From a virus, in the UHGV virus genome UHGV-0038496: 64,000 nucleotides of DNA. One strand, given 5' to 3'. Shown one piece after another: positions 5,217 through 52,700 of the stretch. The notes beneath the pieces are model-generated. The model searched no databases. It was not told where the DNA came from and saw nothing but the letters and a program-made list of their open reading frames with translations. Made by a program: the position numbers and the translations under genes. Positions within the stretch are counted from its first letter, which is position 1, and the number at the start of each line of letters is the position of its first letter.

Positions 5217-6021
5217 TTAAATCATCCTCTTATACATAGAGGGTGAAACAATCTTCGGAATAACACATGGCATCGCAACTTCCTCTTTTTCAAGGTAGTT
5301 GATTGCAGAAGCAATGGAGTCGGCCCAGTCATCTTTACGGCTAAAGGTTGACCGTTCGCCGTTGAATTTCTCCAGCTCTGTCAAAAATGCTTCCAGTGTA
5401 TCAGGGTCGAAACTTGACCTGACAAGCCGAACCATACCCTGTTGGGCAAGGTTGGCAAACGGTGAGAAACGGGTGAGTTTTGATTTGTTAGACGGCATTG
5501 GGTCTTCTTCCACCCTGAAACCTCCAGCAAGGAGTTTGCGGGATGAAGTAAGAAACTCACTCTTACCTGCCTGACCGGGGTCCACAGAGAAGACAATCAC
5601 ACAATCTTCACCATCAAACTCTGCCTGTTTCCTGATAATAACATCGCGTTCACCAGCTTTCTTGCAGAACTTACCGCTCAAGCCTGTGGAATACCTGCCA
5701 TCATCTACGTTTTCAGGACAATAGTCACCAGAGATGTAGTAGTAACCATCGCTATCCTTGCTGACTTTGATACTGGCTGTATAGTCGGGGAATTTGTTGC
5801 CAGAGGTACGTTCTGTACCAGCTTTATCCCACGCTCTTACAGAAACTGCTCCTAGGGGGACATGATCCGCATCTTTCAAGAATGTGCGACTGAAATAGTT
5901 TGCGCCTTCCGGTTTAGCGAACCAGTTACCATAGAGAAGTTGTGCTTTTTCCAGTTCTGGCAGACCTTCTAGGAATGCAAGATATTCTGGGTTATCACGC
6001 AAGCAGATAGGGTTATCGTGT
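5217..6021 (-). CDS. terL: terminase large subunit, exon 3 (C-terminal nuclease domain)
   Basis: Frame contains LLYGNWF-type terminase C-terminal motif; upstream boundary set where conserved intron 3' core ends (approximate). Confidence 0.55.
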
Positions 6022-7009
6022 CCTGGTGTTCAGGGCCGGACGCAACTCCGACCCCCGTTGGTTCCATCCACCGCATCCATGCTCGGCTGCATGTTACCAT
6101 GCAGAGCAGACTATATCACGATCCTGTTTCTCACAGGACCCTTCGCTTTTCGAGCACCATCAGCTTGTGCCCTACTCCCTTTCGGGATAGTCGTTGAACT
6201 ACAATTACCAATCATAATTGTTTGAAATGTAAGTATAAGTTTTCCTTTCCTTGATACTTTTCACTGTACGGTGAGAAACCCCCCACAATCTTGCCACCGC
6301 ACCAACGGATAAGCCTTTTTGTAAATCTTCGCAGATACCAATCACCTTGTGCTCACTTATTCTGTTAGCTGAAGGTATTTCCCTAAAGTGAAACTCCGCA
6401 GAGATATCTGGGTATACTGATCCATTCTTTATACCACTTACAAGGGTTTGATTGACACCGAACATCTGACAGATATCTTTTACCCTTGCACCTTGCTCTA
6501 ATAGCCTGCATATTTCAAGGGCAGTGGCATCATCCAAATACCTGTATTTATTTACATAATCTTTTTTAAGTCCAGTTTCATGGGCGTGGTGTGTGTTTTC
6601 CTCTGGGGTTGTCCACTCAAGGTTCCATGCGGCGTTATTCAACTTATTACCGTCCAAGTGATTTACTTGGGTTTTCACGCTAGGATTATCATTATCAACA
6701 AAAACCTCAGCAACAACTCTGTGAACAAGCACTTGGAACTTTTTGCCGTCCTCACACAGGGAAACCACAGCATAGCCTGTCTTTTTATGCGTAACAGGTT
6801 GAAGGAATTTATTAGAATACAAACTATAAATTCTGCCATCATATGTCACGCAATAGTGTGGGTAACCTAAAAATCCTAAATTCTTCATTTCAAACACTCC
6901 CTACTACAGTTTCGGAAGAATAATTATAGCTGCTGATTATCTGAAAGTCAATCAGATTTTCCAGCAATTAACGAAGTTATTCGACGTGCATTACTGCACG
7001 AAGCCACTA
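6022..7009 (-). mobile_element. group I intron A in terL (contains HNH homing endonuclease gene)
   Basis: Separates two in-frame terL fragments; RNA sense has AACGACUAUCCC and GAUAUAGUCUG (S-element-like) plus CUGCAUGG..ACAUGCAG hairpin; core near-identical to nrdD introns; 5' end approximate. Confidence 0.55.
6205..6897 (-). CDS. HNH homing endonuclease (intron-encoded)
   Basis: 230 aa; HRVVAEVFV...NHLDGNKLNN...NLEW HNH motif; lies inside terL intron A. Confidence 0.7.
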   Translation of the reverse strand: MFEMKNLGFLGYPHYCVTYDGRIYSLYSNKFLQPVTHKKTGYAVVSLCEDGKKFQVLVHRVVAEVFVDNDNPSVKTQVNHLDGNKLNNAAWNLEWTTPEENTHHAHETGLKKDYVNKYRYLDDATALEICRLLEQGARVKDICQMFGVNQTLVSGIKNGSVYPDISAEFHFREIPSANRISEHKVIGICEDLQKGLSVGAVARLWGVSHRTVKSIKERKTYTYISNNYDW

Positions 7010-7333
7010 CAGATTAATGGTTGCACCAATAAAGGCGATAGAGAGGGGTTTTGGAACTATCTCAACACCTTTACCGTTAACATACGTGTACTTCTCGATC
7101 AACTCTTCTGGCGTATCGCCGAAGATAAATTCCCCATCCCTACGGATGAAATAACGCTTAACGCCACACTTACTTTCATCGGGGTAGCCTTCGTCATCAA
7201 GCCACCAACGAACAAGTTTGGCTAAATAATGTTCAGAATCGGGGTTACAGCTGATCACCATTCGCGAAGAGTATTTTGATTTCGACCTCATACGGGAAAT
7301 CAGGTAGTCGATTTGCTCCCATTCGAACTGAGT
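7010..7333 (-). CDS. terL: terminase large subunit, exon 2 (boundaries approximate)
   Basis: Frame encodes ...MVISCNPDSEHY... terminase-like segment flanked by intron-like sequence on both sides; true splice donor probably within 7010-7080. Confidence 0.45.
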
Positions 7334-7966
7334 CGTTTGTGTTCAGGCAAGGTCGCTAATCTTGCCCCGCCACCATGTGGCAGCTGCATGTCTCCATGCA
7401 GACCAGACTATATCTTATAAGCGGTAACAACCGCCTATCCTCCCGTTTCGGCAGTCTTAAAAGACTGTGGGTTTCCCCAGCCGCTTGGCCCTAACGCCCG
7501 TAAGCGATAGTCGTTGAGCACACATCCTATCAGGATGCTTCGCTGCGGATTATCTAAATCAACACACTATTACCATACCTTCGGTCTTTCTCCAAAGCCA
7601 ATATTATGTTACCATAATAGATTGGTGGTGTCAATAGTAAAGATTTCCCCGCAATTAGGGAGGTTTTACGAGAGCTACCAACTAACCCTCGTCAAAGCAT
7701 ATTAAAGTATATTCCACTTTTGTCCCGCCGGATCGCTACTCCGACGCGGTGTGCTAAGACACCCGCCACATATTACCATGTGGAACAGACTATCTCTTCC
7801 ATCCTTGGCGTGCCGTTTGGATCACCAATCGCTTGTGATTCTACTCCCCTACACTCATCGGGGATAGTCGTTACACTCGGTTTCAATTAATCCTTTAACC
7901 GTAGCTCGGTATTGTCCTTTTGTCAAGGAGTTTCACCGAATTAGGCACGAAGGGCAGGTTTGTTTA
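7334..7966 (-). mobile_element. group I intron B in terL (ORF-less, duplicated core; possibly two tandem introns)
   Basis: Two copies of the AACGACUAUC(C/G)C ... (A/G)AUAUAGUCUG ... hairpin ... CCUGAACAC core in RNA sense; no credible ORF; boundaries by analogy with nrdD intron 2. Confidence 0.45.
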
Positions 7967-9079
7967 CCCTTGATGATTCAGCTTATCTTGGACGTATTCC
8001 ATGTGGCAGTACTTGATTACCGCACCATCCCTTTTCTTATTCCACTTACCTGTCTTTGCATCGTAATATGGAAAAGTAAACTTATGATCTTTCTCCCTAA
8101 ATTTTGGCCTCATATATTCAGGAAGATCCAGATACACACTTAGTGCTTTAGGCCACAGACCGCCTTCACCTTCCAGTTGTGGGGTTGTCCTACGGAACAT
8201 CACCACAGAGGTGTTTGGGTCATCTATCATCTTTAGTGGGAGAAGCTGCAAAAGAAAGGATTTACCACTGTTGCCTGTCACTGCAATGCAGTTTTCCAGT
8301 CTGGTGATAAAATAGCCTGTTGTGGTAGCAAAACAATATTTGTAACCATCTTCCGGCTCAAACTCTTCGAACGTTGCATCGTTATTAAGAGCAATCGTAC
8401 CTGCACGTTCGTTGGAGAACACAACTTTGTAACCCTTTTCGAAGAAGATCTGTGCATTGAATCCCAGAGATGATCCGAGGTATTGCAAGAAATCAGCCTG
8501 TTCTTTCGTTGGAACAACGTAGACATGCGAGTCATTACCGTTCAGGTAAATCTCATACCAGATCTGCAACAACTGGCGACGATCACAGTTATACCATTCA
8601 TCTGTGAATTTGTAATATCTTGCCTTTTCTTTCAGCTCTTCGTCAGAAATATCAAGGCCAGTACCACCCATGTTCACAAACGTGGTTTGCATACGCATTG
8701 CCAACTCATCGTTAGCATGTTGTTCGGCCACTTCACTGAAACAAAGTGTACCGTAATCTGTTCCGTCTTCTGGTACATACAGGACTGTGTGCTCGTCAGA
8801 CAATTCCTGACAAATACCATCCTGCACAACCCTGGTCAATTTATCGCATTCCAGCTTAACAAACTCTTCAGGCTGGATAAACATAGCCTTACCAGTTTCT
8901 TTATCAAACTGGAGGATATCTTGACCATCCCAGTCTGAGATTCTGATCCAACCGTTAGGTGTCATCACCTCATGTCGCATTGACAAACAACCCGCTGCCC
9001 CACCAATGATCAGGAAGTCGGCATCATTTTCCAGAATCATTTGTTGTTTACGGGAGCATGGGCCATACATTTTAGCCAT
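7967..9079 (-). CDS. terL: terminase large subunit, exon 1 (ATPase N-terminus, contains intein)
   Basis: N-terminus ...FLIIGGAAG then, after 240 aa insert, SGKSFLLQ: restored Walker A GGAAGSGKS; ATG at 9079 overlaps o-spanin stop. Confidence 0.6.
8270..8989 (-). mobile_element. intein inserted in terL Walker A (P-loop)
   Basis: 240 aa in-frame insert starting with Cys (CLSMRHEVMTPNGWIRISD, intein block-A-like) and ending ...IAVTGN before Ser+1; removal restores Walker A. Confidence 0.6.
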
Positions 9080-9375
9080 TAATTCTCCTTATTGAATAAA
9101 GATTTTACATAATCCTGCAAGATGATTAATTTGGCACGATCATTGCTACAGGAGAGATTGTTCTGCCTCATAATTGCAGAGTTCTCCGCATCTGGTGCAC
9201 CTTTCACCAGAGGGATAGCTTTTGCTGGTGGGATCATAGCTGCCGCAGGAGCCTCTACAGCGAGTTGTTCAACTTTCTGCGGTGCAACTGTGACTGTCGT
9301 ATTTTTAGGTGAGCTACAACCTACCAAGGACATAGAAAACGTAAGTGCAATAGCTAATGCAAGTAACCACCTCAT
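9079..9375 (-). CDS. putative o-spanin (outer-membrane lipoprotein)
   Basis: 98 aa; signal peptide with lipobox LVGC; overlaps upstream i-spanin-like gene. Confidence 0.45.
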   Translation of the reverse strand: MRWLLALAIALTFSMSLVGCSSPKNTTVTVAPQKVEQLAVEAPAAAMIPPAKAIPLVKGAPDAENSAIMRQNNLSCSNDRAKLIILQDYVKSLFNKEN

Positions 9376-13640: not shown

Positions 13641-13702
13641 AGGTGGAAATCGCCTAAAAACTCCAGAATTATCTTTATAAATCCTAGGGTTAAGTGCTGA
13701 CA

Positions 13703-13716
13703 GATCAGATCAGATC
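13703..13716. promoter_or_regulatory. cluster of three GATC sites
   Basis: CAGATCAGATCAGATCAG; three GATC within 14 bp next to iterons and AT-rich tract. Confidence 0.4.
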
Positions 13717-14391
13717 AGGGATAGTAACTTCGTTAGCATTCCCTCTAACTCGTTACTATGTAGTACTAAGCTCGTACTCTCGCTTACTACCGTAAGCTCG
13801 GTACTCACTAAGTACTACCATAAGCAATGTCTTGCTTAATTAATTTATCAATTAATTTTATCAGTACAAAATCAATCAATAAATTAATTAATCAATCCAT
13901 TGATACCACTAAGTTCGTTCCTCACTAAGTGGTATACATGCTGATAGCATTCCCTCTATCAGATGATACTAAGTTCACACTTCGTATCCACTCGTGTTCA
14001 CTAAGTATCATTGATCCATTATTGCTCAAATTTATTTTTTCTTTTCCCACAAATATGGCGCTCCTTTTACCGCTCGCTCGCGCTCGGCGGGTCGCGCCTG
14101 ATCATCGTCTGCTATCAACAAGTGGGCCTGTGGCAACAGAGCTGCCTGAGTTGTGTGGGAAGATCACCGACCGTAAGGGAGGTGCTAATGTGGGGATGAC
14201 GGTGAAAAGCGAAGCTGCCGAGAGGAACCGTCGAATTGTCTGCGCCGCCGCTTCAACCATACCCAGATACCAGAAATCAGTTTTGAGGCCTCTGGTAGCT
14301 TCTGTGGTTAGCTAATAGTGCCTGATGGCTACAGTTGCATTACTAAACTATCAACATCGTTACAGAGCGTTTGAGAGCGTTTAAATTAGTA

Positions 14392-48937: not shown

Positions 48938-49447
48938 CACGTAACTCCTCTGCCCACACATCCACAACAATCGCAAGCTCTGTTGCCTGAAGAGTCAGAC
49001 AAACTTCAGCGATAAGTGCTTTAGCAAGTAGCTTTTAGCTAATTGTGCTGTTCACACATGCCTACCAATTCTGGTAGGTATCTTCCGTATTGCAATTCCT
49101 TTCATCTCCTGCTATAATTTAGATCTTCTCTCTCTTTTCCAGAATACGCTTCTGGGTTTCTCTCTCTTCGGATTGAAGGAGATAGGGGAATATCGACTGA
49201 GTGAACAGTGTGAACATCCGAACGAATGGAGTATCGCACGAGCTTGTCGAGGTTGGAGAGCGGGAGCGGTTATAGCGACCAGCCAACTGCGATGTAATAT
49301 AGGCAGTAAGGCACAATAACGGTAGAGTTTAAGTACCAGCGTTGTTGGGGAGACTAGAACCGGGGGTAGGGGGTTAGGCACATATAGATACTTAGCCTGC
49401 TAATTATTGCATAACTAAGTGATTATAATGGCTTCCTTGCCTGAAAA

Positions 49448-50158
49448 CTACATTCCATAATCCTCATCCTGCTTCTGAGCCATTCCATGATAAACTTCCC
49501 AGTACTTAGAGGCATACACCATATCCCATTCTTCCTGAGTCACCCATGCAATCATCCCACTGAGAATGTCTCTCACCTGTTCCCATTCTTCCCTTTGAGC
49601 AATAGCCTCTTCCTGTGTTTTGAATGCTTTCGCTATACGTTTTGTAACGGTATGACGAGTGACAGCAATACTTGCCCTCCAGTAAGTGTACGGGCCATTA
49701 TGATATTCACTTACCCCACAAATACCAGACTTGTTAGTTTTGTGCATACCACTGTTAGTCATGTTCTGTAGGCGACTAACCAGTCTGAGATTGTCCAGGT
49801 GGTTGTTACCAGGGTCACGATCAATATGGTCAATCTCCATACCTTCCGGGATTGGACCATGATGCATCACCCAGATAATCCTTGCACCCTGGAGCAGAGT
49901 CTGTTTCCCGTCCACCAGCCAGCCTACAACATAGCGACCATCTTTAGCTGCATAGCTACCAGCAACAGCCCCCTTCTTCGCATTAGAAGAACGAGTAAAT
50001 TTATTCCTCAACACACCAAACTCAGCATCATAAACGAAATAGATGCTCCAGTCTGTAGTGTTATACACCTCCTCAAATTTCACCACAACTGTTTTGTTGT
50101 GATTGTTCTTCACAGCGTTATCATAATACGCCTGGGCATCAGCCTTGAACTCAAACAT
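49448..50158 (-). CDS. HNH-AP2 homing endonuclease (free-standing)
   Basis: WVMHHGPIPEGMEIDHIDRDPGNNHLDNLRLV HNH motif and AP2-like segment; isolated in ORF-poor region. Confidence 0.6.
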   Translation of the reverse strand: MFEFKADAQAYYDNAVKNNHNKTVVVKFEEVYNTTDWSIYFVYDAEFGVLRNKFTRSSNAKKGAVAGSYAAKDGRYVVGWLVDGKQTLLQGARIIWVMHHGPIPEGMEIDHIDRDPGNNHLDNLRLVSRLQNMTNSGMHKTNKSGICGVSEYHNGPYTYWRASIAVTRHTVTKRIAKAFKTQEEAIAQREEWEQVRDILSGMIAWVTQEEWDMVYASKYWEVYHGMAQKQDEDYGM

Positions 50159-50199
50159 CCTGACCTCCGAAACCTTTTACCAGTATCGAAAATATACCA

Positions 50200-50525
50200 C
50201 AAATGGCCTGAAGAGTCAAATCATTTCCCCTCTTTAAGCCTCTTTGATCCGATTAACATGCTAATTATTCACAGAAAATACCCACACATAGCCTAAGCAC
50301 TTGATTTCATTGTGAAATATGGCCTGAAGAGCACCACATATTTTAACATACCTTTAACATAATACTTCCCCCGTATATACCTCCCCGCCCTGTCCAGGAG
50401 TCCCGTAAATACTGGCTTCCCCACAAATATCAGCACCACAAATATCACAGGCCTGAAGAGGGCCTCATTTTTTTTTATTCGCACCTCCCCCTCCCCCGTA
50501 GGGCGGTACATAGCCTGAAGAGGCA
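50200..50525. repeat. four dispersed copies of (G)GCCTGAAGAG
   Basis: Copies near 50208, 50322, 50449, 50512 in ORF-free DNA. Confidence 0.45.
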
Positions 50526-50921
50526 TTCATACAATCAGGGGCAAATATCCCAGACTTACATTTGAGGTATTAGGCAGGCGAAACGCGACTCCTTCTCATA
50601 ATGCGAATGATTCTCAAATATCACGGCTGCTTTCGTTATTGATAGCCTGGGCCTTGCAGCTATTGGCCTGGTTATTGCACGGTAGTTACTCACAGCGATT
50701 AATAGTTACACACAGAGATTATAGGGTTGACTGTTCACGCCCTCATTGTGTGGGGTTGAATAATAACATGCGTTACAGTTTTCCACAGGAGCATTTAAGT
50801 TGATGATAAGCCTTCTCATTTGGGAATAATTATTACTTCGTATTGTTCATCATACGTAACACCAGTTATACGCACTTATGATCATCTGTACAGTAGTTCC
50901 ACACAAAGGTAGGACACTGGG

Positions 50922-50961
50922 TTATCCACAGGTGGCAGGGTTATCCACAGACTTATCCACA
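50922..50961 (+). promoter_or_regulatory. three tandem DnaA boxes (TTATCCACA)
   Basis: Exact consensus 9-mers at 50922-50930, 50941-50949, 50953-50961, same orientation. Confidence 0.6.
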
Positions 50962-51299
50962 GCTCACGTATGACGCTACGCGGAATAATCACAGGTCAAA
51001 CGACAGGAAACGAAAGGAAACGAAAACAATCGAAAGAAGATTAATTGCGGTTTATTACAGCACGAAAAGATTAATCATTGCAATAGTTAGCCTGCTATTA
51101 ATTATATTTACAGGGGTGACAGTTACGTCATGTTACAGATGACTGGGCATCATATTGCACTGGCACACTACCATACCAGCTATATAACATGCCCCACAGA
51201 TGCATCTTATAACTGGTCTGACCACTTACGCATAAAAAATCGTTGACAAAAAGAGCGAAATTTGTTAGGCATACTTTCCCCATACTTCGGTCATACTCC

Positions 51300-51480
51300 C
51301 CCCACAGTTTACAGTTTGAAAAGCCCATAATCACACCTCAGGCCTCTGGCCTTCGAGGTAACGCAGTTACGAGACACGCATTGAAATCATAACATCCCAT
51401 GACTGTTTACACAGCGTAGCACTGAGGCCCCGCCGATTTTACACATCTGACAGTTTACACGCATGACAGTTTACGCCTTG
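51300..51480. repeat. ACAGTTTAC(A/G)C repeat family
   Basis: At least five copies (about 51308, 51315, 51402, 51449, 51465). Confidence 0.45.
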
Positions 51481-51596
51481 ATTTACAAGGAAATAGTTGC
51501 GACATGTAACTACCGCAAGACGGTATAGTTGCGCCGTGTTATCGTTGCATGTGTAACTTTACCGTGAAGCCATAGGCTGAATGTGTAACATTACTT

Positions 51597-51928
51597 CAGC
51601 GTTATTGTCACAGATCTGATAGTTTGCACTCTACTCTTAACCAGTGTTATAGTAACACCTGTTACTACTACTTTTGACATAATAACGCTGGGAAAACGTA
51701 ACCGTTTTTGATTATTAACATGTAATAACCCAGCGTTACCATAACAATTTTTATTGTTATTGGAGGACATAATAACGCTGAGGATTATTACATGATAATT
51801 TATGATATAATTTCGCTGGCTATGCCAGGTGGACTACGTCCACCCCGTAGGGCGTTATCATAAATTAGCGAGATAATAATGCTGGATAATAACACGGGGG
51901 TGTTATTGTCACTCAGCGTTATTATGTC
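51597..51928. repeat. iteron family GACATAATAACGCTG (direct and inverted copies)
   Basis: Direct copies at 51677, 51767, variant 51872; inverted CAGCGTTATT at about 51597, 51732, 51914. Confidence 0.5.
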
Positions 51929-52651
51929 GCTCCCTCCGGTCGCGCCATGTTATCGTTGCATAATGTGATTATTGCATTCGCAAATTATTATTTATCTTAT
52001 TTTACTTTATGCAATTTATATATTTTCATTGATTGTAATTTTATTTATTTTATATTTTATTGTATCTCATAATCTAATTATATTACTAATATTATACTAT
52101 ATAGATTATTGAGATACAGAATAATCACCGCCTGAAAGTATATTAATCCCACAGCAGAATAGTCACTGCATGAAATAATGTGGGGTGGGATAGTCACACC
52201 TCGGCATGACTGCCTTGCGGAATAATCACCATATTTACCACACCTGCCAGGTTGTTGAGAATATTTCTCATATGTTAGCTATGCACTAATATTGCATAAT
52301 TAAAACATACCTATCAGATGCATCTTATCGTGACGCTACGTGAAAAATAGAATTTTGCGCCTATAGTTATACCCGATTTTTCAAAAAATGGACTTTATAA
52401 CTCACTGTTTTATAAAGATTTATAGTTGTTGACACAGCCATATAAAATGTGCATCAGCCGAAAAGTGTGAGATACTTCACAAAATGCCCTACATTTGACA
52501 GCCGAAAACTGAAAAAACTTAAAAACTATGTATGCAAATACAGCTATTTTACTGTGTGGTTAATTTTTAGGCATTTTATTTTATGCATTGTTTGAATACC
52601 GGATTCACAGCTTGCCCATGAAGCTACGCTGAATAAATCACTATATTACAG

Positions 52652-52683
52652 ACAACAAAAAGGCCGCTTATTTGCGGCCCCTT
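52652..52683 (-). terminator. rho-independent terminator
   Basis: AAGGGGCCGCAAATAAGCGGCCTTTTTG on minus strand after gene ending at 52701. Confidence 0.6.
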
Positions 52684-52700
52684 ATTATTTCGTTGATAAA

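Follow-up and report, generated by a model that had tools for sequence, protein, structure and literature searches.

A predicted gene-free terminal repeat with three DnaA boxes in the non-coding gap of an rV5-like phage genome

Results and Discussion

The non-coding gap at 48.9-52.7 kb of UHGV virus genome UHGV-0038496, described here within a window that comprises the whole analysed stretch of 64,000 nucleotides, probably represents the termini of a linear phage genome, which appear here as an end-to-end junction such as a concatemer or a circularised assembly presents. The gap holds a predicted direct terminal repeat (DTR) of ~690 bp that contains no conserved open reading frame (ORF) and displays three head-to-tail DnaA boxes near its centre (Table 1). 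A single copy of the DTR is present in the window, where the assembly is predicted to run through the end-to-end junction. The initial annotation had read the region as a replication origin or a DnaA titration or anchoring site resembling the injection-stop regions of T5-like phages; the T5 analogy stands in outline, while the origin on the DnaA boxes does not, and the junction of genome ends had not been recognised.

Boundaries of the predicted terminal repeat

The window genome is that of a diverged rV5-like (Vequintavirinae) phage, whose conserved genes display ~77% nucleotide identity to Vequintavirus and which encodes the major head protein, the portal and the terminase. In the record of the related phage HdK5 the first 459 bp are identical to the last 459 bp, the record opens inside the gap and the repeat maps there; terminal redundancies of 458 bp have been reported for HdK5 and EdH4 (Korf et al. 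2019, PMC6563267). Similarly, the Klebsiella phage KPP-1 (Mydovirus, Vequintavirinae) carries a 514-bp DTR at 116,316-116,829 of its record, supported by doubled coverage and by PhageTerm and classed as T7-type (PMC9862379), and this repeat falls inside the convergent gap of KPP-1 itself.

The HdK5 and KPP-1 repeats, which were determined independently, begin and end on the same motifs. With a slash marking the boundary, the left motif reads GGTGCTGCCA/GGCGGACG in HdK5 and GGTGCTA/GACGGAC in KPP-1, followed in both by ...TCAAATATC, and its general form is GGTGCT..CA/GGCGGAC ... TTCTCAAATATC, also written TTCTCAT-N10-ATTCTCAAATATC. The window motif, GGTATTAGGCA/GGCGAAAC...TTCTCATAATGCGAATGATTCTCAAATATC, stands at 50577, in register with the opening base of the HdK5 record and with the start of the KPP-1 DTR. 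The right boundary takes the form TTGACA-N17-19/, the DTR ending 19 nt past TTGACA in HdK5 and 18 nt past it in KPP-1; in the window TTGACA is positioned at 51243, with TTGACAAAAAGAGCGAAATTTGT ending at ~51266, and the sequences of the lineage diverge right after ~51275. Both boundary motifs are common to HdK5, Murica, L004, KPP-1 and the window lineage. The window DTR is predicted at ~50577-51266 because the boundary motifs of HdK5 and KPP-1 are both present there.

The lineage alignment consists of five sequences, namely the window, L009 (same contig as L003), L014, L015 and L024; IMG/VR gave just three related contigs, and a metagenome scan with the left-boundary motif added three members of the window lineage. 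The edges of loci taken from collection scans are not contig ends and so carry no information on physical ends. Conservation in this alignment peaks at the two boundaries, where 0.94 and 0.86 of the columns are invariant, and drops just outside them to 0.02-0.4 in sequence that is hypervariable or indel-rich. A conserved block that ends on the right boundary, and in which a palindrome precedes TTGACA, is inferred to provide the terminase cleavage context. A sigma-70 promoter at the right-boundary TTGACA was rejected, as no clade displays a conserved -10 element.

DnaA boxes inside the predicted repeat

The sequence TTATCCACA occurs exactly in four places across the 64 kb, three of which, at 50922, 50941 and 50953, form the array of three perfect boxes in 40 bp that the initial annotation had correctly described. 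In the predicted repeat the array takes up positions 346-385. All five lineage members agree in boxes 1 and 2 and in the two spacings of 10 and 3 nt, while box 3 reads TTATCCACA in three of the five and TTATTAACA in the other two. The spacers themselves vary, the first being GGTGGCAGGG, GGAGGAAGAG, GGTGCCAGAG or GGGGGCAAAG and the second GAC, AAG or GAG. Invariant columns amount to 25/27 in the boxes versus 19/40 in their neighbours (Fisher p = 9e-5, with independence inflated by relatedness). As judged from this alignment, the boxes are under purifying selection in the window lineage, which makes DnaA binding of some kind plausible.

The DTRs of HdK5, Murica and KPP-1 contain no DnaA box even with a relaxed consensus, so that, on the sequences compared, the boxes appear as an addition specific to the window lineage, housed in a longer repeat. 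No match to the predicted repeat came from a megablast against genomes and plasmids of E. coli, and there is thus no sign of a host or plasmid origin. A relaxed DnaA match, TTTTCCACA, is found upstream of the array, although its assignment is ambiguous because a ACAGTTTAC-type iteron aligns there in Murica. Downstream of box 3, tandem 10-bp units form phased A-tracts that are likely to represent intrinsically bent DNA; in relatives lacking a 32-nt insert (50962-50993) these units lie within a few bases of box 3. The IHF consensus WATCAANNNNTTR was not found in 50577-51266, its closest match being at 50294-50306.

The proposal that the boxes are the core of a DnaA-dependent origin of the oriC, P1 oriR or iteron-plasmid type, at which DnaA would open the DNA and load the helicase, draws on the presence of three tandem consensus high-affinity boxes conserved in the lineage, on the adjoining phased A-tracts and on the iteron-like repeats and strong AT-rich tract of the gap. 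It is nevertheless quite unlikely, since the sole strong unwinding candidate starts at 51976, at a distance of about 1 kb from the array, the repeat itself ranks nowhere among the least stable regions and it displays no IHF consensus. In addition, a PolA-type polymerase and a gp4-like primase-helicase are encoded by the rV5 group itself, and the equivalent boxes of T5 are not located at mapped origins (10.1101/866236). Boxes are missing from sister genera that otherwise share the terminal architecture, the palindrome and the AT tract, and the boxes are therefore better regarded as an add-on than as a conserved replicator.

It also appears unlikely that the boxes act as a DnaA sink like datA, through which multiplying genomes would soak up DnaA and stop host initiation. 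In favour of such a sink, all three boxes have the highest-affinity sequence in an R4/datA-like context, GTTATCCACAG, their location in the repeat doubles them per genome, and selection acts on the boxes and not on the spacers. However, the IHF site that datA requires is missing from the repeat, the datA boxes are dispersed with one pair head-to-head, and a spacing kept at exactly 10 and 3 nt is more in line with an ordered DnaA complex than with simple titration. Weakening of box 3 to TTATTAACA in two relatives is also contrary to titration, which leaves unexplained why such boxes are located in the terminal repeats of two unrelated phage groups. A datA-type locus was rejected on the basis of the different box arrangement and of the absence of an IHF site among the window boxes.

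Fixed ends or circular permutation

Several points weigh against a terminal repeat to which DnaA binds. The window DTR is placed by the homology of its boundaries to those of two relatives, anatomy is the sole basis for assigning the terminase sites and the origin, and the selection argument uses just five, closely related lineage sequences. Conservation of the boxes is observed, while binding by DnaA is no more than plausible, and the DnaA-anchoring model of T5 is an unreviewed hypothesis (10.1101/866236). Furthermore, rV5 has been described as circularly permuted, and PhageTerm called four bovine vequintaviruses circularly permuted and BpE1AUH headful. Either a short DTR was missed in these cases or packaging varies within the group. 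PhageTerm commonly misses short repeats in transposase libraries. The conflict with the permuted and headful literature is the chief reason why confidence in the terminal-repeat reading is not higher.

These reports, together with the terminators of both gene blocks at the gap edges, would be accommodated by a circularly permuted genome packaged by the headful mechanism, in which there are no fixed ends and the gap is no more than a terminator zone for convergent transcription combined with an internal origin or regulatory region. This alternative is given a small probability, as it conflicts with the published terminal redundancies of HdK5 and EdH4 and the repeat at both ends of the HdK5 record, with the coverage doubled over 514 bp in KPP-1, and with the finding that independently determined repeats end on the same conserved motifs, which are found in the window too.

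An origin-like module at the predicted left end

The terminal-repeat reading places the sequence downstream of the DTR at the unique left end of the genome. There, ~8 15-bp sites are followed by a branched palindrome, a conserved GTCGC...CGCGCCA motif and an AT-rich tract, an order that is the same in Murica and KPP-1. The 15-bp sites are of the GACATAATAACGCTG type, which is direct at 51676 and 51766, perfectly inverted at 51914 and present in several degenerate copies. The 23-nt direct repeat pair that brackets the sites and the palindrome has its Murica equivalent in GCCATGCCATTCGTTTGCAT, found twice, 262 bp apart.

Folded as single-stranded DNA, the palindrome reaches -45.8 kcal/mol (z = -9.9), and its equivalents display z = -12.7 in Murica and z = -11.3 in KPP-1. 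All of the 11 genomes examined carry perfect arms of 17, 18 or 21 nt at 200-500 bp inside the DTR end. The inner arm halves differ among clades yet stay complementary (ACGCTGAG, TAAAAGCAG, ACACGGGAG), and the palindrome is found in three genera. The element may adopt a cruciform or a single-strand hairpin structure. Because the arms are perfectly Watson-Crick paired with no G-T positions, a structure at the DNA level or paired protein sites are preferred over RNA. The motif CCCCGTAGGGCG occurs twice, at 50494 and 51843. A 45-nt core at 51811-51855, made up of TTTCGCTGGCTATGCCAGGTG, a hairpin and CCCCGTAGGGCG, is common to Murica L002 (4981-5026) with compensatory changes in the hairpin; it is absent from L009 and L024 and lies inverted at another position in L004, and is possibly a small mobile hairpin element.

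The extreme AT-richness noted in the initial annotation is borne out by the 150 bp from 51976, which at 14% GC are less stable as a duplex than any other part of the 64 kb (z = 6.4, with 3.4 for the next in rank). A syntenic AT-rich tract is present in Murica. Further downstream lies a non-coding block of strong conservation, in which 92-96% of the columns in 52310-52460 are invariant across the lineage, and in which 52327-52457 retains 72-84% identity to Vequintavirus. Any origin is more likely to reside in the palindrome and AT-tract module (51.6-52.2 kb) than at the boxes. A literature search found no mapped origin for the rV5 group, and the rV5 paper describes skew changes that follow the direction of transcription. 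A second repeat-dense AT-rich intergenic region, at window 13700-14060 where - and + strand blocks diverge, has the second least stable duplex and contains three overlapping IHF-consensus matches, three copies of AGATC and CACTAAGT-type repeats; it is a candidate alternative regulatory or origin region.

Transcription and candidate RNAs

A further reading has the gap serving chiefly as template for long structured non-coding RNA, as one transcript or several, and takes its repeats and palindromes as RNA structure; it would account for the exceptional self-complementarity of 51762-51933 and for the conserved strong promoter and partly co-varying downstream sequence at 49090-49400. This is very unlikely, as Rfam over 49-54 kb (E-value mode) gave one chance-level hit only and no family match, and sigma-70 promoter-like sites are not enriched in 48.5-53.5 kb (11 found versus 14.6 expected). 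The strict Watson-Crick pairing of the palindrome arms is that of a DNA-level element, and many of the motifs are same-strand direct repeats, which are typical of protein-binding sites.

The promoter of the candidate small RNA, TTGCAA-17-TGcTATAAT at 49090-49118, scores 10/12 with the TG extension and corresponds to TTGACA-16-TGaTAAAAT in Murica. RNAalifold of 49090-49400 with Vequintavirus gave 51 pairs, 15 of which are changed on both sides, although with just two independent clades this covariation is weak. Opposite the bidirectional terminator stands a weak promoter-like sequence, TTTATA-18-TAAAAT (52419-52448), and a + strand transcript of ~235 nt could extend from one to the other; a 48-aa ORF inside that stretch (52449-52595, +) is not conserved in relatives. 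The sole tRNA lies at 10.2 kb.

Gene blocks and coding status of the gap

The two gene blocks converge on the gap, with small + strand genes extending to ~48.9 kb and - strand genes from 52701, and the same layout surrounds the homologous gap in Murica and KPP-1. The initial annotation had placed the gap between two early blocks without noting their convergence; they do not diverge from the gap. Its description of 50160-52690 as ORF-free also holds, but the true non-coding zone begins at ~48.9 kb because the HNH homing-endonuclease gene that interrupts it is an insertion in the terminal non-coding zone, present in L003 and absent from L015, the Murica region and Vequintavirus. Contig L015 covers window 49130 to 51027 in just 1,230 bp.

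None of the seven gap ORFs tested (42-77 aa in the window) is intact in all three relatives compared, each having in-frame stops, frameshifts or large deletions in at least one of them, and all seven lack third-position or codon-position bias. In the flanking real gene that served as control, all substitutions are at third positions. Small genes in the gap were rejected on these grounds, in agreement with the earlier statement that no credible ORF is present. A megablast of the gap against GenBank phages gave no near-identical match, and just two short patches, of 72-77% identity, align with Vequintavirus. On the map of the rV5 paper this place is marked by a 'non-coding' box; its authors anticipated bidirectional terminators and were unable to define an origin.

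Outside the gap, a 371-aa ORF at 7964-9079 matches terminase large-subunit profiles in its C-terminal third only and a PhoH-like profile at its N-terminus, and the terminase gene (window 5217-9079, - strand) may be split or interrupted.

Upstream sites and iterons

The repeat families listed in the initial annotation are real, although the counts of five given for ACAGTTTAC and GAATAATCAC were wrong, each being exact three times with further variants. The motif GCCTGAAGAG has four copies in 310 bp, at 50206, 50322, 50451 and 50513, and the 9-mer CCTGAAGAG occurs 6 times in the window versus 0.42 expected. Motifs of the CCTGAAGAG type are found 4-6 times at the same place in Murica, magaca and L004, and take the form CCTGAAGTG in KPP-1. 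By analogy, the four CCTGAAGAG-N5/6-CAT sites are a candidate terminase or pac recognition array. RNA hairpin loops at CCTGAAGAG were rejected, as the possible pairings, judged by eye, differ from copy to copy, and a protein-binding site is the more likely assignment.

The three exact copies of ACAGTTTAC are accompanied by one ACTGTTTAC and looser copies, while the copies of GAATAATCAC are parts of ~33-nt units that come and go among relatives. These units, ...ATGA(A/C)GCTACGC(G/T)GAATAA(A)TCAC, lie at window 50962-50993 and 52607-52640 and elsewhere in L014 and L024. Only the window has one directly after box 3; L009 displays unrelated sequence there, and in L014, L015 and L024 the place is empty. 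The units behave as small modules that duplicate or move, which explains the GAATAATCAC repeats. The CATACT and ACWGTTTAC iterons form the hypervariable start of the unique left end, with a lineage conservation of just 0.02-0.26; eight tandem copies of a 15-16-bp iteron occupy the same relative position in Murica.

Table 1 Features of the non-coding gap and its edges (window coordinates)
Feature	Position	Strand	Basis or remark
Candidate small RNA	49090-49400	+	conserved extended -10 sigma-70 promoter, then ~270 nt conserved non-coding
HNH homing-endonuclease gene	49448-50158	-	phrog_99, E = 1e-44; tblastn matches HNH endonucleases
Four GCCTGAAGAG-N5/6-CAT sites	50206-50530	+	47-371 bp upstream of predicted left DTR boundary
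Intrinsic terminator of rightward block, hairpin AGGCCTGAAGAGGGCCT then T run	50449-50475	+	terminator scan; kept in lineage
Predicted DTR, ~690 bp	50577-51266 (+/-2 each end)		boundary homology to HdK5 and KPP-1
Relaxed DnaA match TTTTCCACA (consensus TTWTNCACA)	50779-50787	+	invariant in 5/5 lineage members
Three head-to-tail perfect DnaA boxes TTATCCACA	50922-50961	+	gaps 10 and 3 nt; near DTR centre
Four tandem 10-bp units ACGAAAGGAA, phased A-tracts	50998-51036	+	TRF period 10, 3.9 copies; alignment
Right-boundary block: palindrome AGATGCATCT, then TTGACA (51243) + 17-19 nt	51198-51266		conserved
CATACT x3 (51270, 51281, 51292; 11-bp period), then ACWGTTTAC iterons (51304, 51402, 51450, 51466)	51270-51474	+	
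23-nt direct repeat pair	51528-51550, 51939-51961		brackets ~8 GACATAATAACGCTG-type 15-bp sites (both orientations) and palindrome
Branched (Y-shaped) palindrome	51762-51933		perfect 17-nt outer arms 51766-51782 and 51912-51928, nested hairpins inside
AT-rich tract, candidate DNA-unwinding element	51962-52125		84-88% of columns invariant in lineage
Strongly conserved non-coding block	52268-52600		contains AGATGCATCT and second GTTGACA
Bidirectional intrinsic terminator GGCCGC-TTATTT-GCGGCC	52658-52690		scan; kept in lineage; closes leftward block ending 52701

Proposed working and implications

The junction would comprise three parts, a unique right-end non-coding zone with the four CCTGAAGAG-N5/6-CAT sites and a terminator, the gene-free DTR of ~690 bp, and a unique left-end zone of 1.4 kb with the iterons, the branched palindrome, the AT-rich tract, the conserved block and a terminator. 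As in the relatives, where the ends have been determined, terminase would cut concatemers at the two boundary motifs and each virion DNA would carry the repeat at both ends, following T7-type packaging. The upstream CCTGAAGAG sites may be the recognition array of the terminase, and the repeat would let progeny genomes join into concatemers. With three conserved high-affinity boxes inside the repeat, it would follow that host DnaA docks on both genome ends upon cell entry. The likeliest use of the boxes would be to hold or organise the incoming ends, as proposed for the paired boxes of T5, for example by tethering them to membrane-associated DnaA or by bringing the two repeats together. The boxes probably do not serve to fire replication, which, judging from anatomy, more likely starts at the left-end palindrome and AT-tract module.

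Maps have shown a 'non-coding box' in rV5-like phages since 2013 with no account of what it is, and circular permutation is assumed for these genomes in many records. Placing a DTR with its boundary motifs in the gap would give a rule for opening and comparing rV5-like genomes and would also yield candidate packaging signals and a candidate origin in a group widely used in therapy and biocontrol. The DnaA boxes would be a second, unrelated case of conserved DnaA sites within a predicted phage terminal repeat, so that the DnaA role proposed for T5 becomes testable in a repeat free of confounding genes.

Comparison with known systems

The closest counterparts are the short DTRs of the Vequintavirinae phages HdK5, EdH4 and KPP-1, which share with the window the ORF-free convergent gap, the boundary motifs, the neighbours, the CCTGAAGAG-type sites upstream and the iterons, branched palindrome and AT-rich tract downstream. 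In contrast, the window repeat is ~230 bp longer and contains the three DnaA boxes and the phased A-tracts. Beyond the boundary motifs its sequence is largely unalignable with those of HdK5 and KPP-1, from which the window ends are inferred.

The concatemer junction of T7 consists of a terminal repeat with flanking packaging signals and a hairpin-forming palindrome. Similarly, a short gene-free DTR lies in the window between non-coding repeat arrays, with a hairpin-capable palindrome nearby, and the replisome of the rV5 group is T7-like, with PolA and a gp4-like primase-helicase, although there is no sequence similarity to the T7 junction. We know of no DnaA boxes in T7.

Multiple consensus TTATCCACA boxes are also a property of E. 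coli oriC, datA and P1 oriR, and the flanking context (G..G) of the window boxes is the same as that of the datA box at 4392744. Unlike these loci, the window array has no adjacent unwinding element, no IHF site and no homologous E. coli DNA, and its boxes are ordered in a single orientation, whereas those of datA are dispersed and partly inverted.

T5 provides the nearest parallel for the boxes themselves. In its left terminal repeat (AY587007), comparison with the T5-family left end, proposed in the initial annotation as a check, verified pairs 3 bp apart at 9358/9370 and 9419/9431, with the sequences TTATCCACA-GAC-TTATCAACA and TTATCAACA-GAC-TTATCCCCA. The resemblance to a T5 terminal region that had been suspected is upheld, as the DTR predicted in the gap has the boxes inside it and boxes 2 and 3 stand head-to-tail with a 3-bp spacer, forming TTATCCACA-GAC-TTATCCACA in the window; the TTATTAACA variant is found in both groups. 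BLAST of the 47-nt box array against GenBank phages returned 597 records, the majority from phages of Salmonella, Escherichia and Klebsiella. Among the matches listed, the best for the pair of boxes 2 and 3 are Enterobacteriaceae phages of 107-138 kb; several of these matches fall in annotated terminal repeat or FST DNA, and KPP2018, the single record inspected, is a Tequintavirus. A preprint covering 25 T5-like phages describes DnaA and variant boxes, with TTATCAACA and TTATTAACA as the commonest variants, and puts forward the hypothesis, not backed by experiment, of an anchoring of the DNA at the T5 site by membrane-bound DnaA (Davison, 10.1101/866236).

Like the window gap, Untranslated Repeat Region 3 of T5-like phages, a putative injection-stop signal, is non-coding, dense in repeats, palindromes and iterons and located at the inner end of the repeat, and an HNH endonuclease gene is found in the terminal non-coding zone of both, in T5 between terminal repeat regions. 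The two nevertheless differ in scale and arrangement. The pre-early genes (A1, A2, dmp) lie within the T5 repeat, which measures ~10 kb, whereas the predicted window repeat of ~690 bp has no conserved ORF. T5 distributes its ~8 boxes over two inverted repeats of 131 bp, IRD'-spacer-IRC' and IRC-spacer-IRD, in which the spacer measures 52 bp, whereas the three window boxes and the one relaxed match have a single orientation and lie outside inverted repeats. The virions are unrelated, T5 being a siphovirus and the rV5-like phage a myovirus, and the DnaA role in T5 is itself putative. To our knowledge, two-step DNA entry is not known in rV5-like phages.

It is a tentative possibility that a lineage of rV5-like myoviruses acquired T5-style paired boxes independently of T5, in a gene-free terminal repeat of 0.7 kb. 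If so, docking of DnaA on terminal repeats would be a convergent strategy of virulent coliphages with fixed ends, by which the incoming ends might be tethered, paused or synapsed. What the boxes do would then be uncoupled from the pre-early gene programme of T5, and the window lineage would offer a much simpler system for the injection-stop mechanism of that phage. The kind of terminal repeat described here is already known from HdK5, EdH4 and KPP-1 and the boxes are known from T5; it is their combination that is new.

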